A DNA stretch of 64,000 bases, taken from NCBI GenBank assembly GCA_016699385.1, contig CP064974.1, positions 259,242 to 323,241 on the forward strand, read 5' to 3'. Below the pieces are notes generated by a model, which saw nothing but the letters and a program-made list of their open reading frames with translations, did not search any database and was not told the origin of the DNA. Every line of letters begins with the position of its first letter. Within the stretch, counting starts at the first letter, position 1. Made by a program: the position numbers and the translations under genes. The stretch is from Candidatus Moraniibacteriota bacterium. GTDB lineage: Bacteria > Patescibacteriota > Minisyncoccia > Moranbacterales > UBA1568. Shown in pieces: positions 10,189 through 30,386 of the stretch.

Positions 10189-10959
10189 ATGCAACTCAAA
10201 AACAACGAGCAAATGGACGCACTTCGAGAAAGCGGCAGGCGTCTCGAGAAAGTAATGCAGGCAGTCGCAGCAGCGATTCGCCCGGGCGTTTCTACGGCGG
10301 AATTGGATGAAATTGCCGAACAAAAAATCCATCAACTCGAAAGCGCACCAGTTTTCAAAGGGTACGGCGAGGAATATGGGAAACCGTTTCCAGCGACAAT
10401 TTGTACCTCAATCAATGATGAAGTGGTGCATGGCATTCCTCGGAAAAACCGCCTTGTTCAGGATGGCGATTTGGTAAAAATAGACATGGGACTGCGCTTT
10501 AATGGGATGGTGTCCGATATGGCGCGGACATTTGCCGTCGGCGAAGTTTCCGATGAGGCGGTACGCCTCGTGCGTGTCACCGAAGAGAGCCTGTTGCGAG
10601 GAATTAGCGCCGTGCGAATTGGCGGGCGACTGTCTGATTATGCCAAGGCGGTACAAAAGCATGTTGAGGAGAATGGCTTTTCGGTCGTGCGCGATTTGGT
10701 AGGGCATGGCGTTGGTTTTGATCTCCATGAACCTCCGCAGATTCCAAATTATTATTTCGTTGGCATGAAGGATGCAATCTTCCGCGTTGGCATGGCGGTC
10801 GCTTTCGAGCCAATGGTAAATGTCGGCGGATACGAAGTGTGTCTCGGCAAAGACGGCTGGGTCTTCGCAACCGAAGATGGCAGTCTTAGTGCTCATTTCG
10901 AGGACACGGTTATTATTACTGACCAAGGCATCGAAGTCGTAACAAGAAGTGGGAAATAA
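10189..10959 (+). CDS. map: Methionine aminopeptidase type I
   Basis: The 256-aa translation shows the MetAP pita-bread fold with metal ligands (..DLVGHGVG.., ..FEPMV..). It lies after adk in conserved order. Confidence 0.93.
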   Translation: MQLKNNEQMDALRESGRRLEKVMQAVAAAIRPGVSTAELDEIAEQKIHQLESAPVFKGYGEEYGKPFPATICTSINDEVVHGIPRKNRLVQDGDLVKIDMGLRFNGMVSDMARTFAVGEVSDEAVRLVRVTEESLLRGISAVRIGGRLSDYAKAVQKHVEENGFSVVRDLVGHGVGFDLHEPPQIPNYYFVGMKDAIFRVGMAVAFEPMVNVGGYEVCLGKDGWVFATEDGSLSAHFEDTVIITDQGIEVVTRSGK

Positions 10960-10997
10960 TCTCTCACCTAGCAATATGTTCTTTTCGGCATTGTGAC

Positions 10998-11026
10998 AAA
11001 CCGTCTCTGCGGAGACGGTTTTTTGT
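10998..11026 (+). terminator. Rho-independent terminator ending the ribosomal-protein/secY/adk/map operon
   Basis: Sequence aaaCCGTCTCtgcgGAGACGGtttttt forms a perfect 8-bp stem with a 4-nt loop and a T-run. Confidence 0.75.
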
Positions 11027-11177
11027 AAGAAGTTTGGAGATTGGATATGGAGATGGAGTTGCTTGCGAAGATGACTCTGTAATGATCGGTAATTATAAAC
11101 ATTGATTTCACAATGGTACAGATATTGACAAAAATATAATTACAGTATATTTTCAAGTATACTTCTCTTGAACCCTC

Positions 11178-12128
11178 ATGAACCAGAAATCCCTCATTCT
11201 CTCTATTTTGATGGTTTTGCTCGTCGCTCTTTTCGGCGGGTGGCTTGTGTTTCGTGGTCAGAAGGGTGTTTGGAATGCTCCGAAAGGGCCATCTGTAGCC
11301 TCGGAACAGCCGGTGCAAACGGTGGAGAAACCGCAAGATGTTCAGGTTTCTGATGCCGACTTTGCCAAGTACAACAAGGTGCTTTCACGCGACAAGATTA
11401 CGGGTGTCCAAGACCTCGAAGGACCGTACAAGAAGGTGACGGTGAGTAACGGAGAGTTGACCTTTTCTTTCGAGGTCCCCGATAAGTGGCTTGTCGAGAC
11501 GCGGAATTCAGGGGAAGTGACAATGAATGAGGGGGAGTTGCGGGAGTTTTTGGGAACGAATTATGACGGGGATATCCGATCAGAAGAGGTTTGCACCAAC
11601 GAAGATGTTTATGATGCAAACGGAAAAATGACGATTGAGAAGTTTTGTGGGAAACCGTACTCCGACTATTCTGGTATGGATTGGAATACGCTTAAAAGCA
11701 TCTCGTATAAGGATATGCAGAAACGATATCTTGATGCGAAAAGTGAATTTTCTCCTGGATTTCCAAATGCAACTGTAACACCCGACAATAAAATTTGGTA
11801 CACAGATACCGGATGGGATCAGGTGCATTTTTACATTCTCGATAAAGTTTTGGATTCTCAGTATAAGTATATTAGGGGCATTACTTCTTTCTGTTATGAC
11901 ACGGAGTGTCTTCAAAAAGACTACCTTGAATATAGAGAGAATATCGAAAAGAGGGCGAAAAGAGACGAAAACAGGAATGTTATCATAGACAAGGGAGAAA
12001 TGCATGGGTTTGCGGAAACGATTGATCTTGGCAATAACAAGGTTCTTAGGATATGGAAAGAAGCCTATGCTGAAGGCGAGTTCGAAGATGGGTTTAAACG
12101 TCTCATAGACACTCTCACGTTCGAGTAA
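11178..12128 (+). CDS. Membrane-anchored hypothetical protein, paralog A (N-terminal TM helix, extracytoplasmic domain)
   Basis: The 316-aa translation starts with a hydrophobic N-terminal helix (LILSILMVLLVALFGGWLVF). It shares a near-identical internal segment and a similar C-terminus with the ORF at 13558..14457. Confidence 0.7.
   Translation: MNQKSLILSILMVLLVALFGGWLVFRGQKGVWNAPKGPSVASEQPVQTVEKPQDVQVSDADFAKYNKVLSRDKITGVQDLEGPYKKVTVSNGELTFSFEVPDKWLVETRNSGEVTMNEGELREFLGTNYDGDIRSEEVCTNEDVYDANGKMTIEKFCGKPYSDYSGMDWNTLKSISYKDMQKRYLDAKSEFSPGFPNATVTPDNKIWYTDTGWDQVHFYILDKVLDSQYKYIRGITSFCYDTECLQKDYLEYRENIEKRAKRDENRNVIIDKGEMHGFAETIDLGNNKVLRIWKEAYAEGEFEDGFKRLIDTLTFE
11343..11543 (+). repeat. About 200-bp direct repeat copy 1 (near-identical to 13704..13904), internal to paralog A
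   Basis: The nucleotide sequence gtttctgatgccgactttgccaagtacaacaaggtgctttcacgcgacaagattacgggtgtccaagacctcg... recurs with three mismatches over about 200 nt. Confidence 0.85.
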
Positions 12129-12148
12129 ATTAAATAGAAATCTGATTT

Positions 12149-12658
12149 ATGGAAAGCAAATGGAAATCAATTTTATTTCGACCAGTTTTTACGATTAGAC
12201 TTATATCTGACTACTCTCTTGTGTCAGCTTTTCTTCGAGGATTTTTGCTGAACTCGATCATTGTTGTACCTGCGAACATGTATGCGAACTTTTTCAATGT
12301 TCATGATGAGGTTGGTGATGCTACAATAATAGCTGTTTTGTATTTTGGATGTTCTCTGGTGTTTTTATGGGGCACCATTTACGGATTTTTTTCTGATAAA
12401 AGATTGTATGTCATTGGTCGTTTTTCATTCATAAGCCATGCTCTCCCTATACTATGGTCGTCTTGTTTGCTTTTTGTTTTTGTGGTTGTTGCGTCTTTTT
12501 CTTTTGATGATATATGGACATTTCTTCCAAATTCGATTTTGATTGGGATTACCTCAAGCATTATTGTTTTTTTGATCCCGTTTTTTTCTGGTTATATTTT
12601 TTCTCGTATTGTTCGATTTTTTCTTGGGATATCTTTCATGAGAAGCAAAAATGTTTGA
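12149..12658 (+). CDS. Hypothetical polytopic membrane protein
   Basis: The 169-aa ORF is AT-rich with 4-5 predicted hydrophobic helices. No motif was recognised. Confidence 0.5.
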   Translation: MESKWKSILFRPVFTIRLISDYSLVSAFLRGFLLNSIIVVPANMYANFFNVHDEVGDATIIAVLYFGCSLVFLWGTIYGFFSDKRLYVIGRFSFISHALPILWSSCLLFVFVVVASFSFDDIWTFLPNSILIGITSSIIVFLIPFFSGYIFSRIVRFFLGISFMRSKNV

Positions 12659-12687
12659 TAGTGTTTTGTAAGAAGGCATTCGATTTT

Positions 12688-12717
12688 CCACACAAATTTT
12701 CATGAAAATTTGTGTGG
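12688..12717. promoter_or_regulatory. Perfect 30-bp palindrome (13-bp arms, CATG centre) upstream of the secreted-protein gene
   Basis: CCACACAAATTTTcatgAAAATTTGTGTGG forms either an operator-like dyad or a hairpin. Confidence 0.5.
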
Positions 12718-12780
12718 AGCACCGAAGTATTCTGCTCCAAGTGCACATTGACAATCTGAATTTTAGTTGGAGGAAAAGTG

Positions 12781-13455
12781 ATGAATGTCAAGTTTGTGGT
12801 TTTGCTATTTGTATGTTTTTTCTGTCTTTGGATGGAACACGCTGTTGGTTCTGAAAGGAGTTCGTCTTTGGCGGAAAGTGTTTGGTATGGCGAAAGGCCG
12901 CTTGTATACGGGACGATCAAGACTGCGATATCTGTGCCTAATGGTCCAGCGGCTTGCGGTGACCCCAATGACACAAATGACAGAATCATGTTCTTCGATG
13001 TATCGATTTTTCGAAGAATAACCGGAAGTTCGTTTGATCCCAAAAAGATATATATCTATGGGGTGACGTTTCTTGGGGATACTGCCATTGATGTCTGGAA
13101 GTCAACAATGCCACATGGTGTGATTGAAGTATCAGCATCTCTTACGGATTGGGATAATACCGTTGCCATTTGTCTTGGCTTGAGGGCGTGGGCGTTTACT
13201 GCTGGCGGTATTGGATTTTCAGATGTTGTTCTCTGGTATGATGGTCTTGTTTCCCTTCCACCCGCCGACCCCGAATCCACCACTCCACCTCCTCCACCGT
13301 CCAACCTCCCAAGTTTGGTCTCGGCAGGAACAAGCAGTTCCGCCCCCAATCTCTCCGCAACGGTTGTGATTGAAAAGCACAACCAGCGCGAAGACACGAA
13401 CCAGCAGGTTCTTTTTGTTTCTTCATCGCGTTTTCAAAAGTTTGGAAACGAGTAG
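12781..13455 (+). CDS. Secreted hypothetical protein with Pro-rich linker
   Basis: A signal-peptide-like N-terminus (MMNVKFVVLLFVCFFCLWMEHAVG) is followed by a globular domain and a PPADPESTTPPPPPS linker. Confidence 0.6.
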   Translation: MNVKFVVLLFVCFFCLWMEHAVGSERSSSLAESVWYGERPLVYGTIKTAISVPNGPAACGDPNDTNDRIMFFDVSIFRRITGSSFDPKKIYIYGVTFLGDTAIDVWKSTMPHGVIEVSASLTDWDNTVAICLGLRAWAFTAGGIGFSDVVLWYDGLVSLPPADPESTTPPPPPSNLPSLVSAGTSSSAPNLSATVVIEKHNQREDTNQQVLFVSSSRFQKFGNE

Positions 13456-13557
13456 AGAATCAAACCGTTTCTCCTGGTACCATGGATTCATGGAACTTGT
13501 TGACAGTGCAATGATACGCAACTTGACACTAAGCCATAAACCTGTTTCAATGCTTCT

Positions 13558-14457
13558 ATGTCAAAAAAGACGCTCATTCTTGCCACCTTTTTCGTCCTCA
13601 TTGTCACTCTCGGTGGGGTGTTTTTGGTTGCGAAGGAAAAATTTGAAAGAATGGCTTTGGAAAAAGCAGACCAAGAGGAAGTGGCAAAACAAGCGGCGAT
13701 GCAACAGGTTTCTGATGCCGACTTTGCCAAGTACAACAAGGTGCTTTCACGCGACAAGATTACGGGTGTCCAAGACCTCGAAGGACCGTACAAGAAGGTG
13801 ATGGTGAGTAACGGAGAGTTGACCTTTTCTTTCGAGGTTCCCGATAAGTGGCTTGTCGAGACGCGGAATTCAGGGGAAGTGACAATGAATGAGGGGGAGT
13901 TGCGAGAATTCCTTAGTACTAGTTGTTTCTATGATGAAAAAATGAAAAGTTCCTACTTTGAACAGCAAGGAATATTTTCATCATCAAAGGAGTCATCCTA
14001 CACGGGATTTTTTCAAGAAAAGTTCAAGAAAATTACTTTCGAAGAGATGCTTACCTTATATAAAGATAAAAAAGACAAGTTTTCGGTTGGTTTTCCAAAC
14101 GCCTCTATTTCCGACGGTTGTGTAATATACTCAGGGTTAAATGGTGGACAAATAGATTTTTATCTTCTATCAGAACAGGATTCTAAACGTTACTATGATT
14201 TCGATGTTAAGGATATGAGTATATCCTCAGATGTTTCTTCTAGAGGAACAATGAGTAATACTACGCTTGGTAGTAAGAATGCCCTATCGTTTATAGGTGA
14301 TAAAACTACCGAGTATGGCTTTGCTGGCACGAGAAAGATCTTTGTGCCACTAAAAAATATAGAAAAGGTTCTTGTTATCTATCAGGAAAATGCAAACTAT
14401 AGCAATATTGTGAGCAATGCATTTGAGCATCTAATAAATACTTTCTCATTTCAGTAG
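13558..14457 (+). CDS. Membrane-anchored hypothetical protein, paralog B
   Basis: The 299-aa translation has an N-terminal TM helix. It shares ..VSDADFAKYNKVLSRDKITGVQDLEGPYKKV.VSNGELTFSFEVPDKWLVETRNSGEVTMNEGELREFL.. with paralog A. Confidence 0.7.
   Translation: MSKKTLILATFFVLIVTLGGVFLVAKEKFERMALEKADQEEVAKQAAMQQVSDADFAKYNKVLSRDKITGVQDLEGPYKKVMVSNGELTFSFEVPDKWLVETRNSGEVTMNEGELREFLSTSCFYDEKMKSSYFEQQGIFSSSKESSYTGFFQEKFKKITFEEMLTLYKDKKDKFSVGFPNASISDGCVIYSGLNGGQIDFYLLSEQDSKRYYDFDVKDMSISSDVSSRGTMSNTTLGSKNALSFIGDKTTEYGFAGTRKIFVPLKNIEKVLVIYQENANYSNIVSNAFEHLINTFSFQ
13704..13904 (+). repeat. About 200-bp direct repeat copy 2 (near-identical to 11343..11543)
   Basis: See copy 1. The flanking sequence of the two paralogs is diverged. 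Confidence 0.85.
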
Positions 14458-14467
14458 ATTCTGTTTT

Positions 14468-14518
14468 CGCAAAGAATCTTTTACAAAAAGATTCTTTGCG
14501 GACAAGGAATTTGTCCGC
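14468..14518 (+). terminator. Two overlapping perfect hairpins downstream of paralog B (13-bp stem with 7-nt loop, and 8-bp stem with 5-nt loop), no clear T-run
   Basis: The sequence is CGCAAAGAATCTTttacaaaAAGATTCTTTGCG followed by GCGGACAAggaatTTGTCCGC. Confidence 0.5.
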
Positions 14519-14572
14519 AGTGTATTTCAAGTATGGATAGATCTTTAACAACCTGAAAATGAGGTGACTTTG

Positions 14573-16516
14573 ATGAAGGCGAGATTCATAATCGTTTTCT
14601 TATTTGCAATGTTTGCATGGACGAATGCTCACGCGCAATATTGTCATGAGGGCATCCCTGGCGGTTGCCAGTGCGTTGCTTTTGCCTATGACAATGGCTA
14701 TAGCGATTTTTTTGGTACAGGATATGCCAAAAATTGGTATGGTGCCGCCAATGGGAAAGGCTATTCCACAGGGCATGTTCCCATGGTTGGTGCTGTAATA
14801 GTGTTCGATTCGTGGGGTAAGAGTGCCGCTGGTCACGTCGCTATTATTGCGAGTATTGCGAGTAGCAGTGAAATCGCTGTGAATCATGCAAACTGGGCGC
14901 CAAACGGAGCGACGGATGACAGAATTTATAGAAGTGTTTCTGTCAAAGACCTCTCTGGAGGAAACTGGACGAGCGTTTCTGTATACGGCTCCGGATCCTA
15001 TCCGGTTCTCGGTTTCATCTACTCCAAAGACGCCAACCTTGGTTTCCCTGCCACTGAATGTTCTCAAGTGAGTGCAACTCAGTATATCTGCTGGCTCACT
15101 AAGAATGGTGTTGACCGCTCTTGTGAAAATGCGACCGCATGGGGTATTGAAGATAGTGTGGCTCATATGAGCCAACCCGCAGATTGGAGTATTTGTTCGA
15201 CGTCGTGCTATGACAGTCAGTCATCAGCCCTGGATTTCTTAATTTCTCCTGTCTATGCTACTGGAACGATTAGTTCCTGCGCTAAGCAAGTGATTTCAAC
15301 CGATCATCTTGAGACTTCCATTCCCCCTCCCATCACCGGAGGCAAACACCCGGGCGACCTCCCCAATCTCATCGTTCACGAACTGTATCTGGTGAAAGAA
15401 GCCGATAGGGACAGCCCGCATCTTTCCCAAATCCATATCGGAGAACGAAGCTACTGCAACATCCAGGTCAAGAATACCGGAGAAGCCGGAGCTTGGGGCA
15501 CCTGGGCGAATCGCTGCTACTTGTCCAAAGGAAACTATCGTGATCACGATCCCGACAACCTGGGACACGAGAGCATGACTGATTTGTCGGCGGGACAATC
15601 CCGTCGAGTCTATCAAATCATTCCCGCTTTCGAATATCCGGGAAAGTTCAATATCACTGCCTGTGCAGATACGGATGGCAATGACGGCGACAAAAAGATT
15701 GCGGAATCTGATGAAGGAGACAACTGCCATGACGAATATCGTTTTGACGTGGTAAGTGATCCGAATCTTGCGACGATGGCAATCAGTCTTACTGGCATTG
15801 TCGGAAACCCCGTAATCAATCAGCCTTTCAATATTTCTTCAACCACAACCAATCTGGGAGAAAACTTCGGACCCGACTATGTCTATATCGGCTATTTCGT
15901 AGACGGAGAACTGGTGGGACAAAACCAAATCCGTCGCGAAAACATGAAAGGAGGGATGAGCAAAGCGGAAGAAATCCCCATCCACGGAGGTATTGCAACG
16001 GCCGGTGTCCACGAAATCAAAGCGTGCGCTGACTTTACGGACGATATCGTCGAGACGAACGAATCGGACAATTGCAGGATACTTCTGGTCAATGTGACTG
16101 CGCCCGTTTCTCCGATTTTGTCGATAAACGGAGTAGTTCTCGCAAACGGCACCCGCCACGTCTTCACCGACGAGCGTCCGGACATTTCCATCAGTATCGG
16201 AAATACCGGAGGCATCTCGTCTCCCATGACTGGCGAAGTATTCATTTCATCGGCTCCTCATGGGGTAGAGAATATCTCCCTGGGGACATTCCAAGTCGGC
16301 GCAGTACCCGAAGGGGGAAATGCCACTGGGACGCTTTCGGGCGTTTCGTTTACCAAGCTCGGTCCATGGGTGTTGACGGCGTGTATCGAAGGGATGACAA
16401 CCTGCACTTCAGGGGATGTCGTCACCATTGAGAGCAGCCACCCGGTAAACAAACATGTGAATCCGGCAGTCCTTATGATACTCAACAAACACAGGCGTGA
16501 GAGGAGTAGGAGATGA
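14573..16516 (+). CDS. Secreted CHAP-domain peptidoglycan hydrolase with three CARDB-like repeats
   Basis: After a signal peptide, CHAP motifs are present (..GGCQCVAFAY.. Cys and ..AAGHVAII.. His). Three repeats follow, each ending in a D/E-x-N-C (CARDB-like) motif: NCHDEYRFDV, ESDNCRILLV, and others. An RBS gaggtg lies 7 nt upstream of ATG 14573. Confidence 0.75.
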   Translation: MKARFIIVFLFAMFAWTNAHAQYCHEGIPGGCQCVAFAYDNGYSDFFGTGYAKNWYGAANGKGYSTGHVPMVGAVIVFDSWGKSAAGHVAIIASIASSSEIAVNHANWAPNGATDDRIYRSVSVKDLSGGNWTSVSVYGSGSYPVLGFIYSKDANLGFPATECSQVSATQYICWLTKNGVDRSCENATAWGIEDSVAHMSQPADWSICSTSCYDSQSSALDFLISPVYATGTISSCAKQVISTDHLETSIPPPITGGKHPGDLPNLIVHELYLVKEADRDSPHLSQIHIGERSYCNIQVKNTGEAGAWGTWANRCYLSKGNYRDHDPDNLGHESMTDLSAGQSRRVYQIIPAFEYPGKFNITACADTDGNDGDKKIAESDEGDNCHDEYRFDVVSDPNLATMAISLTGIVGNPVINQPFNISSTTTNLGENFGPDYVYIGYFVDGELVGQNQIRRENMKGGMSKAEEIPIHGGIATAGVHEIKACADFTDDIVETNESDNCRILLVNVTAPVSPILSINGVVLANGTRHVFTDERPDISISIGNTGGISSPMTGEVFISSAPHGVENISLGTFQVGAVPEGGNATGTLSGVSFTKLGPWVLTACIEGMTTCTSGDVVTIESSHPVNKHVNPAVLMILNKHRRERSRR

Positions 16517-16866
16517 AAGTGAAGCTAACATTAGCGCAAATGGTTCTGCTGATTTTCTTCAGTGGACTCATTGCTTACTCGGCTCTATCGGCTGAAACGT
16601 CGTATTGCCCGGATAGCTACAGCCAGATCGAGATAAATGGGCACTCGGTTATGCGGATTTGGGGCGTATCGGGAGTTGCTTCAAATCATGCGCTCAGTGC
16701 CAATCCCGATTATGACTGGCCGACGGAAACGTCTGTCGCTCTTTGGTACGATGCTATCGTGTCGGCAAAAGCAGATGGAACCTGTGTGAAGCTGTACTAT
16801 GACATCAATAGCAAAACGGACAGTGACAGCAACACGGTTCATGACCTGTGGTCGGTTTCCAGGTAG
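16513..16866 (+). CDS. Small secreted hypothetical protein, translationally coupled to the CHAP hydrolase
   Basis: An ATGA overlap links it to the upstream stop. A signal peptide (MKVKLTLAQMVLLIFFSGLIAYSALSA) is present, and the protein is 117 aa. Confidence 0.6.
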   Translation: MKVKLTLAQMVLLIFFSGLIAYSALSAETSYCPDSYSQIEINGHSVMRIWGVSGVASNHALSANPDYDWPTETSVALWYDAIVSAKADGTCVKLYYDINSKTDSDSNTVHDLWSVSR

Positions 16867-16899
16867 TCGCTGGAAAGTTCTTTCAATTCACAATTCAAC

Positions 16900-16930
16900 A
16901 AAACCCATTGCCGGAAGGTGGTGGGTTTTT
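16900..16930 (+). terminator. Putative terminator hairpin followed by a T-run
   Basis: The sequence AAAACCCAttgccggaaggtggTGGGTTTTTgatttggttttt forms an 8-bp stem. Confidence 0.5.
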
Positions 16931-17103
16931 GATTTGGTTTTTGGCTTGAACGGGGAGGGAAAGGGGAGTAGGATAGGGAGAGTGCTGAAGCGGAGACTTG
17001 TAAATTCAAGAAAATGTAAGGAAACTATAGATGAGAAATGTTAATGTAGTGAATCGATTGCCCTCTTTCTAAGGGAAAGTAGAGCTTTCTGTATAATAAG
17101 AGT

Positions 17104-17766
17104 ATGCCGAGAATTAAAAATCTTCCAAAACACGAGCAGCCGAGAGAAAAGCTCATTGAAAGGGGGGTAGGAAATCTTCGCGATAGTGAATTAATGGCTA
17201 TCCTCCTTGGAACTGGAATTACGGGAAAGAACGTTGTAAGGGTGTCTGAAGAAATATTGGCGAGATATCCAAAGAAGAAGCTACTAGCTCTTGATTATGG
17301 GAAATTGTCGGAAGTGAAAGGTATTGGACAGGCAAAAGCCTGTCTCTTGTTGGCGGCGTTTGAGTTGACGAAACGTGCCTTGGCGGTTGAAGATAATAGT
17401 CTCCCGATAATTGATTCGGCAAGAGACGCTGTTGCTCAGCTCCAGGAGTTGCGGACGGCTAAGAAAGAGCATTTCATTGCATTGTATTTGAATGCTCGAA
17501 ATCAACTCGTGCATAAAGAGCTTATCTCTATAGGAACGCTAAATGCTAGTCTCGTTCATCCAAGAGAGGTGTTTAAGCCAGCTGTAGATTGTCTTGCTGC
17601 GGGAATTATTGTCGCTCATAATCATCCATCAGGGAGTCTTGAGCCGTCATTTGAAGATATTGAGGTAACAAAGCGATTGTTCAGGGCGGGTAAAGTTCTA
17701 GATATACGAGTAATTGATCATATAATTGTGGCAACGGCGGGGTGGAAAGTTATCGCTATTGATTGA
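17104..17766 (+). CDS. radC: RadC-like JAB/MPN domain protein (UPF0758)
   Basis: An N-terminal helix-hairpin-helix region and the HNHPSG..EPS..D JAMM motif are present. Confidence 0.85.
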   Translation: MPRIKNLPKHEQPREKLIERGVGNLRDSELMAILLGTGITGKNVVRVSEEILARYPKKKLLALDYGKLSEVKGIGQAKACLLLAAFELTKRALAVEDNSLPIIDSARDAVAQLQELRTAKKEHFIALYLNARNQLVHKELISIGTLNASLVHPREVFKPAVDCLAAGIIVAHNHPSGSLEPSFEDIEVTKRLFRAGKVLDIRVIDHIIVATAGWKVIAID

Positions 17767-17769
17767 CTT

Positions 17770-19155
17770 ATGCAAAAGAAATACCAAACGAAGGAGGCAG
17801 TTATCAATGAAGCGAGGAAGATATTGAATCAATCCCTGCGGAGTTTGATGTCTAAAGATGATATTGATGCAGTTGAAAAGCGTCTTAACTCCTATGGTAC
17901 AAATCGGAAGGGATTTCTTGGCGGACTCGTTGAAGAGTTTGTATTTGGTCTCAGTGTAAACAATAATTCAGAAGCTGATTTCAAGATAGCGGGAGTCGAA
18001 TTAAAAACAAATCCACTTAAGAGCCATCCTACAAAGGTGTATATCTCAAAGGAGCGTCTTGTTTTCTCCCTGATTAATTACGATGAAATTGTTCAGGAGA
18101 CGTGGGAAACAAGCTCTTTCCTTAAGAAGAATAGAGTTCTTCTTATACTATTCTATTTATGGATGAAGGAGCAGAGTCTTCTTGATTATAAATTCAAATT
18201 TGTTTACTTGATGAATTTACTTGAAGATATATCGGATGTTGATATCTTTCAGATACGTAAAGATTGGGAGTATATAGTTGCGAAGATAAGACGGGGAGAG
18301 GCGCATCTTCTATCTGAAGGTGATACGTATTATCTCGGAGCGTGTACGAAAGCTGCGAATAGCCAGATTGTCCGCGAACAGCCGAACAATCGAATTCCAG
18401 CTAAACCTCGAGCATTCTCTCTCAAGCAACAGTATTTAAACTATATTATCCAGAAGGAGCTTCTCGGAAAGGATATTGAGACGGATTCTATTTTTAAGAA
18501 GACGCGGCGAATTGAAAGTGTTGATGATGCTTTTAAGGAAAAATTGAGACCTTACATCGGAAAGACTGACAAGGAGATTATTCAGGAGATTGGTTGGAAG
18601 GGAGCGACGAAAGCGAAAAATTATAGAAGGATACTCGTAAATAAGATGCTCGGGGTATCTTCAAATAGGATTGAAGAGCTTGAGAAAGCGAATGTCACGC
18701 TTAGAGTGGTAACTCTTGAACACACGGGTTCTCTCAGGGAATCCATATCATTTCCAGCCTTTGATTATAATGAACTTGTCATACAGGAATGGGAGAATGA
18801 AGAGGATGGAACTATGACGGACTTTCATTTGGCACTTGAAACAAGGAGATTTCTTTTCATAGTCTTCCAGAAGATTGTGGGAAGTAGTGAAATCGTTCTT
18901 AAAAAAATTAAGTTTTGGAATTTCCCAATGAAAGATATGACTGAAGCAAAGCGTGTGTGGGAGAAAGCTGTTGAATGTGTGAGGGAAGGGCACTATGGAG
19001 ATTTACCAAAAATGAGCGAGAGTGCCATTGCGCACGTAAGACCACATGGGAAGGATTTGACGGATACTCTTGAAACGCCACAAGGAACGCGTGAAGTAAA
19101 GCGATGTTTTTGGTTGAATGCAAATTATATACGAAGAGTGGTAGAGGATGACTAA
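17770..19155 (+). CDS. Type II restriction endonuclease, MutH/Sau3AI family (probable GATC specificity)
   Basis: The 461-aa protein carries ..EADFKIAGVELKTNP.., which matches the MutH/Sau3AI D-(x)n-E-x-K catalytic signature (DF..GVELKT). It lies immediately upstream of a C5-methyltransferase. Confidence 0.7.
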   Translation: MQKKYQTKEAVINEARKILNQSLRSLMSKDDIDAVEKRLNSYGTNRKGFLGGLVEEFVFGLSVNNNSEADFKIAGVELKTNPLKSHPTKVYISKERLVFSLINYDEIVQETWETSSFLKKNRVLLILFYLWMKEQSLLDYKFKFVYLMNLLEDISDVDIFQIRKDWEYIVAKIRRGEAHLLSEGDTYYLGACTKAANSQIVREQPNNRIPAKPRAFSLKQQYLNYIIQKELLGKDIETDSIFKKTRRIESVDDAFKEKLRPYIGKTDKEIIQEIGWKGATKAKNYRRILVNKMLGVSSNRIEELEKANVTLRVVTLEHTGSLRESISFPAFDYNELVIQEWENEEDGTMTDFHLALETRRFLFIVFQKIVGSSEIVLKKIKFWNFPMKDMTEAKRVWEKAVECVREGHYGDLPKMSESAIAHVRPHGKDLTDTLETPQGTREVKRCFWLNANYIRRVVEDD

Positions 19156-19228
19156 TCTAAGCCGTAGTTGATCAATTTTCAGTACTCTGCTACCATTGTT
19201 GTTGTGGCGTTTAACTACCTTTCTTGGT

Positions 19229-20509
19229 ATGAAGAAGATACGAATTGTTGAATTGTTTGCTGGAGTTGGAGGATTTCGTCTTGGTCTTGATGCTGCAAGT
19301 AGAAAAGATTGCAAATATGAGGTTGTCTGGAGTAGCCAGTGGGAACCTGACGCTAAGATGCAGCACGCTTCCGGTATTTATGTTCACAAGTTTGGATCTA
19401 AAGGTCACTCATGTGAAGATATACGACAAGTAGTCGAGAAAAAATTTGAAGAAATAGTAGACCATGATTTGCTTGTTGGAGGTTTCCCGTGTCAGGATTA
19501 TTCCGTTGCAAGGACATTGAGTCGAGCTGAAGGCTTGAAAGGAAAGAAGGGAGTTCTTTGGTGGTCGATATTTGATATTCTGAAGAAGAAGGGGAAAAAA
19601 GCTCCTCGATTTCTTATGTTGGAGAATGTTGATCGGTTGTTGAAATCGCCAGCATCACAGCGTGGACGCGATTTCGCAGTCATGCTTTCTTCTCTTGCTG
19701 ACCTTGGTTATGCAGTTGAATGGCGGATTATAAATGCGGCAGAATATGGATTTCCGCAGAGGAGAAGACGCGTTTTTATTCTTGGGTATAAAAAGGGTAC
19801 AAACCTGTATACAACAGTGAATTCTGAGAAAATGAAGTCAGATTGGTTGCAAAGTAATGGCGTTATAGCAAAGGCATTTCCTGTTGAGAAATCTACTAAT
19901 AGTGCCCGTGAATTTCTTATTGAAGGAGATTTTGCTGAGGTGACAAAGAATTTTTCAGTCGGAGGTCCAGCGAAAAGTCCGTTTGAGAATTCCGGGCTGA
20001 TGATTAATCGAAAAGTCTATACATTGAAGACGATTCCAAAGCAGTCGAAGCATAAGATTATTCTTGGAGATATAATTGAGACTGACGAGAAGAAGATTCC
20101 AGATGTCTTTTTTGTAGATGATAATGAGATAAAGGAATGGGAGTATTTGAAGGCAGGAAAAAAAGAACGACGAGAGACAAAGACTGGGCATGTATACCAT
20201 TATTCGGAAGGGTCGATGATTTTCCCTGACTCATTAGAGAAACCATCACGTACAATCGTAACTGGTGAAGGAGGACGTTCCGCATCGAGGTTTAAGCATG
20301 TTATTAGAACAAACTCTGGGAGACTCCGCCGATTGATGCCAATAGAACTTGAGAGGCTCAATATGTTTCCTGATAATCACACGCGGTTTATGGGGGAAGG
20401 ACTGGAAGTTTCTGATGTGAAGCGAGCGTTTATTATGGGAAACGCACTTGTTGTTGGTGTCATTAGAGAGCTTGGGAAGTCTCTTCGAAAAGCTATTGAA
20501 AAAGAATAA
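19229..20509 (+). CDS. DNA (cytosine-5)-methyltransferase (type II R-M modification subunit)
   Basis: Motifs I (ELFAGVGGFRLG), IV (GGFPCQDYS), VI (LMLENV) and VIII (QRRRRVFILG) are all present. Confidence 0.9.
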   Translation: MKKIRIVELFAGVGGFRLGLDAASRKDCKYEVVWSSQWEPDAKMQHASGIYVHKFGSKGHSCEDIRQVVEKKFEEIVDHDLLVGGFPCQDYSVARTLSRAEGLKGKKGVLWWSIFDILKKKGKKAPRFLMLENVDRLLKSPASQRGRDFAVMLSSLADLGYAVEWRIINAAEYGFPQRRRRVFILGYKKGTNLYTTVNSEKMKSDWLQSNGVIAKAFPVEKSTNSAREFLIEGDFAEVTKNFSVGGPAKSPFENSGLMINRKVYTLKTIPKQSKHKIILGDIIETDEKKIPDVFFVDDNEIKEWEYLKAGKKERRETKTGHVYHYSEGSMIFPDSLEKPSRTIVTGEGGRSASRFKHVIRTNSGRLRRLMPIELERLNMFPDNHTRFMGEGLEVSDVKRAFIMGNALVVGVIRELGKSLRKAIEKE

Positions 20510-20571
20510 AGATGAAACACACTATATAAGTGGGCGAGAGCATTTATGGGAAAATTTTAACAAAAAAACTT

Positions 20572-20925
20572 ATGAAAAAATATACGGGTGGGTGTCAGTG
20601 TGGGGTGGTGCGGTTTGAGATGGAGGTGGAGGATATCAAGGAGGTGCTCTCGTGCAATTGTTCGCGATGTGAGAAGGCGGGGTGGCTTTTGACCTTTCTC
20701 CCCAAGGCGCAATTCACGCTCCTCTCGGGAGAAGACAATCTGACAGAGTATCGCTTCGGCGACAAGAGTATCGCACATCTTTTTTGTAAGACCTGCGGGA
20801 TTGAATCATTTGCGTATGGTTTGGGGACAGACGGTGTGGAGACGGTAGCTATCAATGTGCGGTGCGTGGATAATATGGATGTCGACTCTCTGACGGTGAA
20901 GAAATTCGACGGAAAGTCGTTGTAA
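20572..20925 (+). CDS. GFA-family (glutathione-dependent formaldehyde-activating / CENP-V-like) zinc protein
   Basis: CQCG...CNCSRC...CKTCG cysteine clusters are typical of the GFA / Mss4-like fold. Confidence 0.65.
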   Translation: MKKYTGGCQCGVVRFEMEVEDIKEVLSCNCSRCEKAGWLLTFLPKAQFTLLSGEDNLTEYRFGDKSIAHLFCKTCGIESFAYGLGTDGVETVAINVRCVDNMDVDSLTVKKFDGKSL

Positions 20926-20949: not shown

Positions 20950-21360
20950 ATGGAGACATTTTCCTTTCTCGGTATTGATTGGGGAGAGAAGAAGGTGGGA
21001 ATAGCAATTGCGGATTCGGAGACGCGGATGGCATTTGCCCTTGCGACACTTCCGAATGATGCCCGACTCCTCGATGCACTTGGAGAGATTGTCGAGGCGC
21101 GCCTGGTACGGGAAGTCGTCATCGGCATTCCGTCTCATGTGAATCGCGAGCAAGTCGAGTATGGTGGGGAAAAGCTGGGTAAATTAATTGCCGACCGTTT
21201 CCACCTTCCTGTTCACTATGAAAATGAAATGTTCACGACCAAAATGGCGCGCGCCGAACTCATCGCCCGTGGCGTTCGTGGACACCTCGACGCCCAAGAC
21301 GACCGCGAAGCCGCTCGTATCATCCTCGAGAGCTTCCTCGCGGGGAAGGGGAAATTGTGA
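20950..21360 (+). CDS. ruvX: Holliday junction resolvase-like YqgF/RuvX
   Basis: ..LGIDWGEKKVGIAIAD.. matches the RNase H-like YqgF signature. Confidence 0.85.
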   Translation: METFSFLGIDWGEKKVGIAIADSETRMAFALATLPNDARLLDALGEIVEARLVREVVIGIPSHVNREQVEYGGEKLGKLIADRFHLPVHYENEMFTTKMARAELIARGVRGHLDAQDDREAARIILESFLAGKGKL

Positions 21361-26111: not shown

Positions 26112-27710
26112 ATGTACGATATCATCATAAAAAACGGGGCAGTGCTCGACGGGACGGGTGCGCGTGAGTTTGCGGGCGATATCGGCATCAAGGAAGGCAC
26201 GATTGTGACGATTGGAAATCTGAACGGTGAACAAGCCGAGAAGACGATTGACGCCAAGGGTTGCTATGTCGCGCCCGGATTTGTGGACATCAACAATCAC
26301 TCGGATACCTATTGGCAGATATTTTTGAATCCCGACTTGGAAAGTCTTGTGCGACAGGGTATCACGACGATTGTTGGTGGGAATTGTGGCTCGTCTCTTG
26401 CGCCGCTCACGGATCAATCTATGCTGCAGTCCATTCAGAAATGGACGGATATTCGAAATCTCAATCTCAATTGGCTTTCGACGAATGAATTTCTGGATGA
26501 GGTTGGACGACGGGAGCTCTCGGTGAATTTTGCGACACTTTTGGGGCACGGGACACTTCGTCGCGGATTTGTCCATGATGAATCGCGACCGCTTCGAGCG
26601 GCGGAGCTTGCCGGCATGGAGAAGATGTTGAAACAGTCGATGCGTGAGGGATCGATAGGTATGTCTTTGGGACTTGCCTATGTGCATGGGCGACATGCGA
26701 CAGAGCATGAGCTTTCGACGCTCGCAAAAATAGTCGGGAAATACAATGGATTCTGCACGGCGCACCTGCGTAGTGAAGGGAAAGAGCTTCCGGAAGCGAT
26801 TGCGGAGGCAATCACGATGGCGAAACATTCCGGTGTCCGTCTCCATATCTCGCACCTCAAGGCGGTCGGGCGACGATACTGGGAGGCTATGGAACGCGCG
26901 CTCTATTTGCTTGACGCATCTGATTCCGAAGGAGTTGACGTGTCATTTGATATCTACCCGTATCGATCGACCGCAACCGTACTCTACACGATTCTCCCGA
27001 CATGGATAACTGATGGTGGGAAGAAAATAATGTTCCAACGACTCCGCAGTCCTGCCATTCGGACGGAGGCGGTTCATGATCTCAGAGAAGAACATATCGA
27101 CTATTCTTCAGCGGTACTCTCGCTCTCGTCGCTCAACAAGATGATTACTCGGACAAATGTGCTCGAGATGGCGCATGCAGAGGGAAAGACACCGGAAGAC
27201 GTTATCTTTGATGTGCTTCTTGCTTCGGATGATCGCGCGATTGTTTCACTTGACGCACTCTCCGAAGAGAATATCGAAAAGGGACTTCGTCATCCATTTT
27301 CGATTGTGAGTACGAATGGTACGGGCTATCCGGTCGGATATGCCCAAACAGGCGAAGCTATTCACCCTCGATGTTTCGGTACGTTCCCGCGCGTCCTCTT
27401 TCGTTATGTGCGCGAGCGCAAACTTCTCAGTTGGGAAGAAGCGATTCACAAAATGACCGGCAAGCCAGCTGCAAAAGCGGGCATTGAGAAACGCGGCACG
27501 ATTGCGGTTGGAAATCACGCTGATATCGTCGTGATTAACCCGAGTGAAGTCGAAGATCATGCAACATCAGAAAATCCCTATCAATACCCATCAGGAATCC
27601 CATTTGTTATTGTCAATGGTAAGATTGCAGTAGAAAGCGGAGAATACACTGGCAATCGATCCGGTACTGTACTCCGCCGCGAAAGCGGTTTCCTTGAACG
27701 ATTTTGGTGA
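26112..27710 (+). CDS. N-acyl-D-amino-acid deacylase (D-aminoacylase), amidohydrolase superfamily
   Basis: The N-terminal ..IKNG.VLDGTG.., ..GFVDINNHSD and metal-binding His motifs are present. Confidence 0.8.
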   Translation: MYDIIIKNGAVLDGTGAREFAGDIGIKEGTIVTIGNLNGEQAEKTIDAKGCYVAPGFVDINNHSDTYWQIFLNPDLESLVRQGITTIVGGNCGSSLAPLTDQSMLQSIQKWTDIRNLNLNWLSTNEFLDEVGRRELSVNFATLLGHGTLRRGFVHDESRPLRAAELAGMEKMLKQSMREGSIGMSLGLAYVHGRHATEHELSTLAKIVGKYNGFCTAHLRSEGKELPEAIAEAITMAKHSGVRLHISHLKAVGRRYWEAMERALYLLDASDSEGVDVSFDIYPYRSTATVLYTILPTWITDGGKKIMFQRLRSPAIRTEAVHDLREEHIDYSSAVLSLSSLNKMITRTNVLEMAHAEGKTPEDVIFDVLLASDDRAIVSLDALSEENIEKGLRHPFSIVSTNGTGYPVGYAQTGEAIHPRCFGTFPRVLFRYVRERKLLSWEEAIHKMTGKPAAKAGIEKRGTIAVGNHADIVVINPSEVEDHATSENPYQYPSGIPFVIVNGKIAVESGEYTGNRSGTVLRRESGFLERFW

Positions 27711-27854
27711 TGTGCCTGCTATACTTTTTGTATTGCTCTACGCATGAGTCGCACCTAGTAGTGCGTCTTTTGTTTTCCCGTGGGAGAGTTCCTCGCTTGA
27801 TAGGAGGGCACTTTGGAGGTATGGTTGAGGTGGTAGTGTGTTGACAATTGTACT

Positions 27855-30386
27855 ATGTCTGAACGACCGAAAGCGACGAAATTTGTGTTTGATTCCTACG
27901 ACTTTTCTCTCGAGGAGAGAAAAGCGTCTTTTGTGTATCGGATGGAATTTGAGAATCGGGAGCCAATGGTGTTTACTGATGCACTCCTTTTTCCGGGGTT
28001 GCCGGAAACAGTGGCTGCCTCAGAATCATTGATTGATGCGGTGCTGCAAGGAGTGCATATCGCTCTTGGTGTGAGTTACTACAAACTTTCGTGTCCGGAA
28101 CATATCGAGGTGACCCATGCGCTTTCAGAGAAGCAAGCGAACTTTTGGAATACTGTCTATCGCAAAGGACTGGGTGAATTTTTCTTTCGAAATAATCTTG
28201 ATCCGCGAGGGAGAATATCGTTTCCATATGATGCGACTCTCTCCCGGGGAAGCTATGGCGCTCATCCCGAAGACCGTGCGCTTCTCGGCATTGGTGGTGG
28301 CAAAGACTCCATCGTCGCCGGAGAACTCCTCAAAGAAATGAAGTATGAAACGACGGCATTTCTTTTTGAAACAGGGAGTCCGGTACCGCTCATTGAAAAC
28401 GTCGTTGAGACGATGGGTATTCCAACAATGAAGGTGCAACACTTCCTTGATCCGCAGGTCTTTGATGGTTATGACGGGGCGTACAATGGGCATGTGCCTT
28501 TCTCGGCGCTCGTTGCATGGGTGGGATATCTTTCGGCGGTTCTCGGTGGATATCGATATGTCATTGTGGGAAATGAGCGGAGCAGTAATATCGGCAATGT
28601 CGAGTATCTCGGTGAAACAGTAAATCACCAATGGAGCAAGTCTCTTGAATTTGAGACGATGTTTCAGGAGTATTCGCGAGCATTTTTGTCGCCGGATATA
28701 ACGTATTTTTCACTGCTTCGCCCGTTTTACGAAATTCGGATTGCAGAGATGTTTGCTTGTCATGAGAAATATTTTTCTTCTTTCTCAAGTTGCAATCGGA
28801 GTTTCAAAGTACACCAAAGGCGTTCGGAAACGCTCTGGTGTGGCGAGTGTGCGAAGTGTGCTTTTGTTTTTCTCTTACTCTCGGCATTTCTCGAAAAGCA
28901 GAACGTGCTGGAAATTTTCGGTAAGAATCTCCTTGATGATGAGTCTCTTCTCCCGCTCTTTGGCGATATTTTGGGCTTTGGTTCGATGAAGCCGTTTGAC
29001 TGCGTGGGCACGGTTGAGGAGGCTCGTGCGGCACTCTTTCTTTCAAATGAACATTTCGGCGAGAGTCGCATTGCGAAAGAATTCCTTGTGAAGATTGAAC
29101 ATCCGGAATCGCTTGTTCGCGATGTAATGAAACTGCACTCGGCGCGGGCGGTTCCGGCGGATTTCCTCTTTTCGGGCGCGAAGAATGTGCTGATTCTCGG
29201 ATATGGTCGAGAAGGGAAGGAGACCGAGCGTTATCTGAAGCAGTATAAACCACATCTTGATATCGGAATTGCGGACAAAAGTCTCGATGCTTCGTATCTC
29301 GACCAGCAGAAGGGCTATGATATCGCTGTCAGGACTCCCGGCATATCGAGGCGATTGGTGATGATTCCCTCTACGACAGCGACCAATATATTTTTTTCTC
29401 GCGTGCGAAATCTTACGATTGGTGTGACTGGGACAAAGGGTAAGAGTACGACGGCGTCTCTGATTGACTCTATTCTTCGTGTAGCAGGGAGGAAGTCGCG
29501 GCTCCTTGGGAATATCGGACAGCCGCTTCTCTCTGCGCTTCTTGCTCCGCTTGATCCAGAGACAGTCATCGTGGCAGAGCTGTCGAGTTACCAGCTTGAG
29601 GATATTCAGTATTCACCGCATATCGCGGTTGTACTCAATCTCTTCTCTGATCACATGGATTATCACGGAAATGTGGAATCCTATCATGAGGCAAAGCGAA
29701 ACATCCTTCGGTTTCAAAATGAACGCGACTTCGCAGTGTACAACGGGCACGATGAAAAGCTTTCTGCGTGGGTGAGTCAGGGCAGTGCAAAGGCGATTCG
29801 TTTTGATATTCTAGAGAATGAGGTATACGAATCTTCGCTCTTGGGGACGCACAATGTAGAGAATATTCGTGCGGCGGTTGCAGTTGCGCATCTTCTCAAT
29901 ATTCACGAAGAAGCAATTCGAGAAGGTATACGGACATTTGTTCCGCTTCCGCATCGACTTGAACGTGTCGGCAAATTTCGGGGCGTCACGTTCTATGATG
30001 ATGCAATTTCGACAACGCCGGAATCGACGCAAGCAGCGCTCGAAGCGATACCAAATGTTTCAACGATTTTCCTCGGTGGTGAAGATCGAGGCTATGATTT
30101 TTGTGGACTTGAACAAACGATTCGCGAATGTGGCGTGAAAAATATAGTTCTCTTTCCGGAGAGTGGAAAGCGAATACTTTCTTCAACTGACGGCGTCACT
30201 GTCCTTGAGACGAGAAGTATGGAAGAAGCAGTTCGTTTTGCCTATGAGAAGACACCAGCTGGTTCGACGTGTCTTCTTTCAACTGCTTCGCCAAGCTATT
30301 CTCTCTGGAAAAACTTCGAGCAAAAGGGTGATGAATTCCAACAATGGGTTCGAAAACTCGGCGAAGAGAAAGCCTTGTCGGATTGA
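27855..30386 (+). CDS. murD: Fusion protein: N-terminal PP-loop-like (GGGKDS) ATP-pyrophosphatase-type domain plus C-terminal UDP-N-acetylmuramoylalanine--D-glutamate ligase (MurD-type Mur ligase)
   Basis: The C-terminal half has the MurD Rossmann N-domain (VLILGYGREGKE..), Mur ligase P-loop (GVTGTKGKSTT) and ..NLFSDHMDYHG... The N-terminal ~390 aa has an LGIGGGKDS PP-loop-like motif and a CGECAKC cluster. Confidence 0.75.
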   Translation: MSERPKATKFVFDSYDFSLEERKASFVYRMEFENREPMVFTDALLFPGLPETVAASESLIDAVLQGVHIALGVSYYKLSCPEHIEVTHALSEKQANFWNTVYRKGLGEFFFRNNLDPRGRISFPYDATLSRGSYGAHPEDRALLGIGGGKDSIVAGELLKEMKYETTAFLFETGSPVPLIENVVETMGIPTMKVQHFLDPQVFDGYDGAYNGHVPFSALVAWVGYLSAVLGGYRYVIVGNERSSNIGNVEYLGETVNHQWSKSLEFETMFQEYSRAFLSPDITYFSLLRPFYEIRIAEMFACHEKYFSSFSSCNRSFKVHQRRSETLWCGECAKCAFVFLLLSAFLEKQNVLEIFGKNLLDDESLLPLFGDILGFGSMKPFDCVGTVEEARAALFLSNEHFGESRIAKEFLVKIEHPESLVRDVMKLHSARAVPADFLFSGAKNVLILGYGREGKETERYLKQYKPHLDIGIADKSLDASYLDQQKGYDIAVRTPGISRRLVMIPSTTATNIFFSRVRNLTIGVTGTKGKSTTASLIDSILRVAGRKSRLLGNIGQPLLSALLAPLDPETVIVAELSSYQLEDIQYSPHIAVVLNLFSDHMDYHGNVESYHEAKRNILRFQNERDFAVYNGHDEKLSAWVSQGSAKAIRFDILENEVYESSLLGTHNVENIRAAVAVAHLLNIHEEAIREGIRTFVPLPHRLERVGKFRGVTFYDDAISTTPESTQAALEAIPNVSTIFLGGEDRGYDFCGLEQTIRECGVKNIVLFPESGKRILSSTDGVTVLETRSMEEAVRFAYEKTPAGSTCLLSTASPSYSLWKNFEQKGDEFQQWVRKLGEEKALSD

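Follow-up and report, generated by a model that had tools for sequence, protein, structure and literature searches.

The window analysed here is a stretch of 64,000 nucleotides (nt) of the genome of Candidatus Moraniibacteriota bacterium (contig CP064974.1), and the element in question is the segment of ~9.6 kb that lies between map, the gene for methionine aminopeptidase, and ruvX. As listed in Table 1, the segment encodes a series of surface and cell-wall proteins followed by RadC and a restriction-modification (RM) pair. In the left part of the window, a cluster of ribosomal protein genes, with S5 and L15 but no L30, continues through secY, adk, and map, and the right flank continues from ruvX with GT2, a galT-like gene, tpiA, fba, gap, an amidohydrolase gene, and a gene for a MurL-like ligase. 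The + strand carries all sizeable genes from position 1 to about 40 kb. The cargo described in a first-pass annotation made from the sequence (the paralogs A1 and A2, a polytopic protein, secreted proteins, a CHAP-CARDB protein with a partner, RadC, and the RM pair) was recovered as described. The same annotation let housekeeping genes resume at about 20.5 kb with ruvX and glycolysis genes; these genes do follow, although a GFA-family gene precedes ruvX. This gene sits between the methylase gene and ruvX and belongs to the conserved right flank, outside the cargo. The RuvX and A1 proteins of the window are identical to QQR77769.1 and QQR77759.1 (locus tag IPJ67_01255), respectively, and this accession gap of ten numbers matches the ten genes from A1 to ruvX. 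The comparison with relatives described below indicates that the interval from map to GFA-ruvX is probably a recombination hotspot in one clade of Moranbacteria, where positions 10957–20531 are the cargo of the window strain.

Table 1. Features of the map–ruvX interval and its borders in the window.
Feature	Position	Strand	Evidence and remarks
map (methionine aminopeptidase)	10189–10959	+	Pfam Peptidase_M24, E 7.8e-49; closes the ribosomal/secY/adk cluster; conserved left flank
Intrinsic terminator after map	10998–11026	+	10-bp GC-rich stem and U6, −16.1 kcal/mol, z −3.74
Promoter-like site 5' of the first island gene	11125–11153	+	TTGACA-17-TATTTT, 10/12 consensus matches; such sites not above chance in the region
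A1, N-terminally anchored protein	11178–12128	+	N-terminal transmembrane (TM) anchor, disordered linker of ~35 amino acids (aa), alpha/beta ectodomain of ~260 aa
Probable A1/A2 gene-conversion tract	11343–11548 (A1) and 13705–13910 (A2)	+	206-nt block, 98% identical
B, small polytopic membrane protein	12149–12658	+	4 predicted TM segments (hydrophobicity scan); GC content at third codon positions (GC3) 0.29, very low
Near-perfect palindrome/hairpin between B and C; possible terminator	12679–12726	+	Inverted repeat; −25.1 kcal/mol, z −5.3
C, secreted protein	12778–13455	+	N-terminal hydrophobic segment (signal peptide); Pro-rich C-terminal part
A2, paralog of A1	13558–14457	+	42% aa identity to A1, E 2e-66
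Hairpins after A2; probable terminator	14458–14520	+	Inverted repeat; terminator-like site 14496–14520; −27.4 kcal/mol, z −5.65
Secreted CHAP-CARDB protein	14564–16516	+	Pfam CHAP 6.3e-12, CARDB 7.6e-14
117-aa secreted partner	16513–16866	+	4-nt ATGA overlap with the CHAP-CARDB stop; signal-like segment
Terminator between the surface/cell-wall module and the RadC-RM cassette	16900–16929	+	13-pair stem in scan (12 in RNA fold), T-rich tail, −18.5 kcal/mol
RadC, full length	17104–17766	+	NF000642 222 bits vs cutoff 180; Pfam RadC 2e-39; UPF0758_N + JAB
Sau3AI-family type II endonuclease	17770–19155	+	NF040973 413.6 bits vs cutoff 300, residues 5–458
C5 cytosine DNA methyltransferase, 426 aa	19229–20509	+	Pfam DNA_methylase 2.9e-61, TIGR00675, PADLOC MTase_II 2.2e-163
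GFA-family small Zn/Cys protein	20572–20925 (start probable)	+	Pfam GFA 2.1e-13
ruvX	20950–21360	+	Pfam RuvX 8.8e-24; heads the conserved ruvX-GT2-galT-tpiA-fba-gap block

The relatives used for comparison were found with Map and RuvX as queries. An exact look-up of the Map protein of the window gave no record. The Map-based scans of genomes and metagenomes gave one close lineage (L001/L018, 84% identical), and all other matches, which were at most 51% identical in any segment and came from other phyla, were usable only as controls for the canonical gene order. The search with RuvX opened up the lineage itself, and the identity of RuvX to that of the window was used as a rough distance scale among the loci. 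Every RuvX homolog that bears a name is assigned to Candidatus Moranbacteria or Moraniibacteriota, within the candidate phyla radiation (CPR), or Patescibacteria.

In five loci that represent three deeper lineages (L049–L053), map is followed by ruvX-GT2-galT-tpiA-fba-gap, and no cargo is present. The gap between map and ruvX is 121 nt in L053 (RuvX 60% identical) and 125 nt in L049/L050 (69%; complete genome CP064994.1), and in L051/L052 (76%) the stop codon of map and the start codon of ruvX overlap by 4 nt (ATGA). These junctions show map followed directly by ruvX to be the ancestral state in Moranbacteria. In the clade where RuvX is at least 82% identical to that of the window, the slot would have opened at this junction, and a GFA-family gene would have become fixed at its right edge, with the cargo between map and GFA differing from genome to genome. 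The GFA gene lies immediately 5' of ruvX in L043–L046, L048, and L058–L061, and a truncated copy is found at the contig end of L047; it is absent in L049–L053.

The closest comparison is with the conspecific contigs L045 and L046 (RuvX 98%). SecY and Adk of L045 are 100% identical to those of the window, and its left and right flanks are 99.3% and 98.5% identical at the nucleotide level, within a range of 97.4–99.3% for the flanks of L045/L046. In the blastn alignment of the window with both contigs, the homology ends at 10956 and resumes at 20532, 40 nt upstream of GFA. These limits place the left breakpoint at the 3' end of map and define the strain-variable segment 10957–20531 (+ strand), which is almost the same as the island of 10960–20510 proposed in the first-pass annotation. 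In L045, the 2175 bp between the two junctions are unrelated to the island of the window and contain no infA; the genes found at this place in L045/L046 encode an OLD/AriA/GajA-like ATPase of 482 aa together with a half-size type I S subunit, followed by GFA.

Other members of the clade carry different cargo. In L043 (RuvX 83%; complete genome CP064989.1), an ortholog of A1, two other anchored proteins, a CHAP-CARDB gene split by a DDE transposase, the partner gene, Fic/RhuM (PADLOC PDC-S23), and GFA are found. The left side is not covered in three further variants: L044 (83%), with a 217-aa protein, a Lactamase_B-like protein, KilA-N, Fic/RhuM, and GFA; L058 (82%), with an AAA_15/21 ATPase, two small open reading frames (ORFs), GmrSD, and GFA; and L059/L060 (84%), with an EcoRI-type methylase, DUF2806, Fic/RhuM, GmrSD, and GFA. 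In L018/L001, map is followed by an anchored protein of 219 aa, an IS30-like transposase, and another anchored protein. The window, L043, L045, and L046 have both the left flank (map) and the right flank (GFA-ruvX-GT2), and the right flank is present also in L044, L047, L048, and L058–L061. At least six distinct sets of cargo occur between these flanks. In L061 (GCA_049643625.1), a second assembly of the window species, the junction of endonuclease, methylase, GFA, and ruvX is reproduced at 98.8% nucleotide identity. The proposal that the segment is an accessory island is thus borne out by a conspecific contig that lacks all of it, by other cargo at the same place in relatives, and by the empty site in deeper lineages.

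As a side observation, the cluster of RuvX at 99% identity (P0001) and that of A1 at 98% identity (P0241) each comprise four Logan contigs, the longest of 8179 nt. If this were one and the same contig, the distance from A1 to ruvX would be shorter on it than in the window, as might be expected of a variant without the RadC-RM cassette.

The divergence between the window and its closest relatives changes towards the junctions. Compared with L045, the number of mismatches per 500 nt is about 1–3 in the left flank and increases to 8 and then 14 near the left junction, and from the right junction outward it decreases from 11 to 7, 3, and 2. In L061, the endonuclease and methylase genes are identical to those of the window, 24 differences occur over GFA-ruvX and the start of GT2, and no difference is found in the next ~2.5 kb. 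A cargo gene for an anchored protein of 219/220 aa is 95.9% identical at the nucleotide level between L018 (10912–11609) and L043 (3631–4331), whereas the flanking core DNA is 80% identical, which indicates that the gene probably moved between these diverged Moranbacteria not long ago, at one and the same slot. The gradients of mismatches and the mosaics of L061 and of L018/L043 form the pattern that would result if homologous recombination took place within the core genes on either side. The cargo would thus be swapped by homologous recombination in these genes, probably after uptake of DNA, and insertion sequence (IS) elements would add insertions and rearrangements in some relatives. Genomic islands, one of them with an RM system, as well as pili and comEC have been reported in Patescibacteria (PMC12455944). 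The first-pass annotation considered that the island may be old or acquired by recombination; the mismatch gradients, together with the lack of an integrase, favor recombination, while "old" does not hold for the island as a whole, whose turnover is visible within the species.

Outside the interval, the stretch at about 26370–28370 of the window (the 3' end of the amidohydrolase gene and the N-terminal part of the MurL-like ligase) holds ~100 of the 140 mismatches to L061 in 11.3 kb. It looks like a second recombination tract, since the neighboring DNA is nearly identical to L061.

An explanation in which the island is a degraded integrative mobile element, a remnant of a prophage, an integrative and conjugative element, or an integrative and mobilizable element that entered site-specifically and later lost its integrase, would account for the IS elements found in the same slot of relatives and for the RadC-RM cassette of an unrelated contig (L062), which adjoins a large serine recombinase and a ParB-methylase. 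In the island of the window, however, no integrase, transposase, phage, or conjugation family was found. The Pfam search for integrase, transposase, and phage families covered the island ORFs on both strands, including antisense and small ORFs, in agreement with the first-pass annotation, which had seen no integrase or transposase; the antisense and small ORFs matched no Pfam family at all. The PHROGs search of the island gave only RadC and a weak CHAP match, and tblastn found none of the transposases or IS remnants of the relatives in the window. Flanking direct repeats and tRNA remnants, for which a search had been suggested, are missing: neither direct repeats nor att sites surround the island, no tRNA gene lies near it, and the only tRNA gene of the window is at 32.7 kb. 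No conserved sequence motif is shared by the junctions across the variants, and the breakpoints lie in or beside core genes, with the gradient of divergence typical of homologous exchange. Site-specific integration is not indicated, and a decayed mobile element is a very unlikely origin of the island.

It could also be supposed that the clade inherited the whole segment from its ancestor and that the genomes differ by differential loss only, without horizontal acquisition. The genes for A1, the CHAP-CARDB protein, and the partner would fit such a history, because they are syntenic with their orthologs in L043 at 54–73% aa identity and their GC3 is similar to that of core genes. On the other hand, the sets of cargo are mutually unrelated (RM; OLD-like ATPase with the S fragment; Fic/RhuM; GmrSD; EcoRI-type methylase), the RadC-RM cassette has a counterpart of 73% nucleotide identity in unrelated surroundings, one cargo gene shows 96% identity between two genomes in which the flanks show only 80%, and map and ruvX are tightly joined in the deeper lineages. 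Loss as the only process is consequently improbable, marginally more so than the mobile element.

The first-pass annotation had placed the island within the ribosomal supercluster, as a foreign insertion between map and infA that displaced the infA-rpoA-rplQ block. The usual order map-infA-rpmJ-rpsM-rpsK-rpsD-rpoA-rplQ that it took as a reference is indeed kept in many other phyla, where seven E. coli queries recover it, and the same queries (infA, rpmJ, rpsM, rpsK, rpsD, rpoA, and rplQ; tblastn) find none of these genes anywhere in the 64 kb of the window. In Moranbacteria, however, the gene after map is ruvX, unless variable cargo and GFA lie between the two, and the genes from infA to rplQ are found within 10 kb in none of the Moranbacteria loci examined, neither in the five deeper loci without an island nor in L045, where only 2.2 kb separate map from GFA-ruvX. 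Because map and ruvX are directly joined in the deeper lineages, the separation of infA-rpoA from map predates the island, and the supercluster was not split by it; the insertion into a contiguous supercluster is therefore very improbable. The native end of the ribosomal cluster in this order-level lineage is thus map, with ruvX as the next gene. We infer that the infA-to-rplQ block lies elsewhere in the lineage, because its genes are essential and the two complete genomes have no such block near map. Of the two patterns named in the first-pass annotation as speaking against its proposal, the placement of rpsM-rpoA elsewhere in the lineage applies, and the conservation of the cargo genes after map does not. 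The unusual gene order after map is consequently a trait of the lineage rather than damage caused by the island.

That the junctions are artefacts of assembly, with a chimeric metagenome-assembled genome joining unrelated contigs after map, is the least probable explanation of all. Short-read assemblies of relatives do break here, with the end of L001 0.8 kb downstream of map and the start of L061 within the endonuclease gene, but strain heterogeneity and IS copies would be expected to cause such breaks. Both junctions recur in other assemblies, the right one independently in L061 and the left one (map followed by the A1 ortholog) in the complete genome CP064989.1, and the window matches a single-contig genome of 1,111,322 bp in which the protein numbering agrees with the gene order.

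Several points weigh against the interpretation as a recombination hotspot. Most of the relatives are metagenome contigs, and the organism of each contig was assumed. The adjacency of map and ruvX is not universal: in L054–L057 (RuvX 84%), rplI-pyrG stands in front of ruvX, the pyrG and ruvX genes overlap, and neither map nor GFA is there, an order best read as a rearrangement at the map-ruvX junction. Homologous recombination after DNA uptake is a conclusion from the patterns described above and was not observed, and no competence or recombination genes were found in the window among those tested. The surface module shared with L043 could equally mean ancestral presence and loss in L045. Base composition, finally, was rejected as decisive proof of foreign origin, because a housekeeping stretch at 59–63 kb (GC 0.38–0.40) is compositionally as deviant as the island.

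The composition of the island is itself uneven. The GC content is 0.38–0.46 at 11–15 kb and 0.39–0.43 at 17–21 kb, compared with about 0.48–0.50 in the flanks, and the drop is patchy, with core-like values at 15–17 kb. The description of the region as AT-richer applies to these two parts, but not to the stretch between them. The GC3 values are 0.35–0.39 for the RadC, endonuclease, and methylase genes, lowest for B (Table 1), and core-like, at 0.45–0.57, for A1, C, the CHAP-CARDB gene, and the partner gene.

The island is accordingly a mosaic of parts with different histories and not a single insertion. The surface and cell-wall module (11178–16866) looks like an older resident of the slot that was lost or replaced in L045, because its GC3 is core-like and it is partly shared with L043, a genus-level relative, at 54–73% aa identity. 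The 3.4-kb cassette of RadC, endonuclease, and methylase (17104–20509), in turn, is a later import from the gene pool of Patescibacteria, because its GC3 is lower and the same co-linear unit occurs in an unrelated genomic context.

The left border of the module is the hairpin after map, and the strong terminator that had been placed there was confirmed, an equally good folding being obtained in 1 of 200 shuffles. Analogous hairpins lie downstream of map in L043 and L018. From its position and predicted folding, the hairpin is the putative terminator that closes the ribosomal/secY/adk/map operon.

The first protein of the module, A1, has no match in Pfam, NCBIfam, PADLOC, or PHROG. The search for homologs detected 36, and every named one belongs to Moraniibacteriota; by this distribution A1 is a predicted member of a protein family specific to Moranbacteria. 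The AlphaFold (AF2) model has a predicted local distance difference test score (pLDDT) of 83 and a predicted template modelling score (pTM) of 0.75, and the fold search of the model against the PDB gave no structural match at E below 0.4. A1 thus represents a family of surface proteins that is specific to the lineage and whose fold, although predicted with confidence, lacks a match in the PDB. Its ortholog in L043 is 56% identical and occupies the same position. The first ~60 residues of A1 resemble those of the other anchored proteins in the slot, which suggests that a common anchor-linker may carry different ectodomains among these proteins.

The paralogs A1 and A2 share a block of nearly identical sequence (Table 1), and outside this block their protein identity is about 42%. 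The overlapping segments of A1 and A2 are only ~70–72% identical to the L043 ortholog (~71% for the A2 segment 13756–13913). The near identity of the two copies, combined with this lower identity to the ortholog, points to a recent intragenomic gene conversion. The block is also a direct repeat, which could delete the 2.4 kb between its copies. Neither B nor C matched any family in the profile searches, which for C included PHROGs. The hairpin between their genes gave the sole Rfam match, to mir-299, which was rejected as a chance match far below the gathering score.

The CHAP domain is a cysteine/histidine peptidoglycan amidase/peptidase. The CHAP domain of the module (PF05257) scores 46.3 bits against a cutoff of 26, and its Cys (CQCVAF) and His (GHVAII) motifs are present. 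The protein has an N-terminal signal-like segment and weak matches to the peptidoglycan hydrolases PcsB and ScrM, and it is a predicted secreted peptidoglycan hydrolase. The overlap of the two reading frames suggests that the 117-aa partner is translationally coupled to the CHAP-CARDB gene, and the partner may have an immunity or accessory role. In L043, the CHAP-CARDB ortholog is 61–73% identical and is split by the DDE transposase; the ortholog of the partner is 54% identical and adjoins the CARDB fragment. At 5836–8028 of L043 (CP064989.1), DDE_Tnp_1 lies inside the ortholog, the downstream partner gene is intact, and no match to the region of the CHAP domain (residues 1–165 of the CHAP-CARDB protein in the window) was recovered. 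Such a pattern would be expected if the partner were immunity-like. The hydrolase and its coupled partner are possibly relevant to an episymbiotic lifestyle.

In the cassette, the metal-binding motif HNHPSG...D (E/D) of RadC, its first gene product of three, is intact. The endonuclease matches REase_II of PADLOC (2.6e-81) and MutH of Pfam at residues 59–151, and the catalytic residues D70/E77/K79 (D...E-x-K) of the MutH/Sau3AI fold are intact in the translation. The ORF of the methyltransferase opens at TTG 19196; ATG 19229 is the start used in relatives (426 aa in L061 and L062). The methyltransferase motifs FxGxG, PCQ, and ENV are present, and the DNA_methylase domain covers the full length. 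RadC ends 3 nt upstream of the endonuclease gene, and the methylase ATG lies ~70 nt downstream of it. From this arrangement the C5 methyltransferase is the predicted cognate methylase of the endonuclease, and by family membership the cassette should be a GATC-specific type II RM system. In such a system, the methylase would shield the host DNA, and the endonuclease would cut unmethylated incoming DNA.

Two points weigh against this assignment of specificity. It is predicted on family membership only, and the depletion of GATC across the whole window (observed/expected ratio, O/E, 0.58), which is compatible with long exposure to GATC-specific restriction, is not specific evidence for it because GGCC is far more depleted (O/E 0.18).

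The distribution of the cassette differs from that of the surface module. The nucleotide homology between the window and L062 spans exactly 17113–20508 (73%), and the three genes are co-linear, with aa identities of 81% for RadC, 78% for the endonuclease, and 80–81% for the methylase. The setting of L062 is unrelated, with UvrD, a large serine recombinase, and a ParB-methylase nearby. In a third CPR contig (L063), the order is RadC-OLD-endonuclease-methylase; its RadC is only 50% identical to that of the window, and its endonuclease and methylase are 65–67% identical. The closest homologs of the endonuclease (62–78% identity) are all from Patescibacteria, whereas those on Firmicutes plasmids are at most 39% identical and occur without RadC. 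A scan of IMG/VR with the endonuclease gave no match.

The part played by RadC in the cassette may be read in two ways: RadC may belong to the mobile unit, or a resident radC may be a place where RM systems tend to insert. The RadC of L063, which has diverged further than its endonuclease and methylase, speaks for the second option and against RadC as a component of the cassette. A stronger form of the first option, in which RadC is not a passenger but a functional third component of a Sau3AI-type RM cassette specific to Patescibacteria, is rather doubtful. RadC could then, for example, process DNA and so link restriction or methylation with the treatment of DNA that enters the cell or is damaged. 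The limited evidence in favor of this form consists of the order of RadC, endonuclease, and methylase with gaps of 3–4 nt in both the window and L062, the equal divergence of the three genes of L062 (~80% aa identity), the retention of the order in L063 with an inserted OLD nuclease, and the lack of RadC in the Sau3AI systems of Firmicutes. The RadC-RM cassette could help to explain the function of RadC, which is still obscure.

The interval as a whole is a new example of a well-known genome organization, in which core genes enclose a hotspot or defence island. The concept of such hotspots comes from pan-genome studies of horizontal gene transfer. As in known cases, the same pair of conserved flanks encloses unrelated sets of genes in each genome, even in conspecific ones, the site is empty in outgroups, and many variants have no integrase. 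The right-hand part of the slot in Moranbacteria is dominated by type II RM, OLD/Gabija-like ATPase, GmrSD, and Fic/RhuM PDC-S23 genes, as in defence-island hotspots, although no statistical enrichment is claimed here. The case of the window differs in that it lies in an ultra-small CPR genome of ~1.1 Mb, at the 3' end of a ribosomal/secY/adk/map operon, and in that half of its cargo consists of lineage-specific surface and cell-wall proteins. The repertoire of defence islands in E. coli is treated in PMC10121019.

CPR organisms have genomes of ~1 Mb and usually no CRISPR. At the junction of map with GFA-ruvX, they swap defence and surface genes at a fixed chromosomal place without a visible integrase. 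That this junction serves the whole lineage as a slot dedicated to defence is a further, rather doubtful reading. With an empty site, alternative cargos, and replacement within a species, the junction provides a clean case of turnover in a minimal CPR genome, and this turnover fits the view that DNA uptake and homologous recombination drive the accessory genome of CPR bacteria. The islands with RM systems described for Patescibacteria (PMC12455944) are similar in that a complete RM system lies in a CPR island and transfer is mostly within Patescibacteria. They differ in that they were predicted from composition (IslandViewer) and a type I system was highlighted, while the island of the window was delimited by comparing gene order among genomes, including those with an empty site or other cargo, and carries a Sau3AI-type type II pair after RadC.

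Compared with the Sau3AI system of Staphylococcus aureus 3A (NF040973) and its MutH relatives, the endonuclease of the window passes the curated cutoff, has the D70/E77/K79 residues, and is paired with a C5 methyltransferase. It differs from the members on Firmicutes plasmids in its low identity to them, and the two genes of the window are co-directional and tightly spaced, whereas those of the plasmid examples are divergent or convergent. In addition, a full-length RadC lies 3 nt upstream of the pair and appears to travel with it. The RadC-like JAB proteins of mobile elements (PMC5512222) resemble this RadC in the tie to laterally moving DNA and in the intact JAB metal-binding motif. The RadC of the window is nevertheless a full-length "housekeeping" protein with UPF0758_N and JAB domains, which passes the equivalog cutoff and is neither a solo JAB nor a polyvalent protein, and it is linked to an RM pair and not to anti-restriction or conjugation genes.

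Among the remaining observations in the window, GGCC occurs 22 times against 124 expected, and the O/E of CTAG is 0.45. The depletion of GGCC suggests a possible long-term pressure from GGCC-specific (HaeIII-like) restriction somewhere in the lineage. At 60533–62521, in the low-GC stretch of 59–63 kb, an ORF of 662 aa fuses GlutR_N and Shikimate_DH with a class II aminoacyl-tRNA synthetase core of the Asp/Lys/Asn type, which is an unusual combination.

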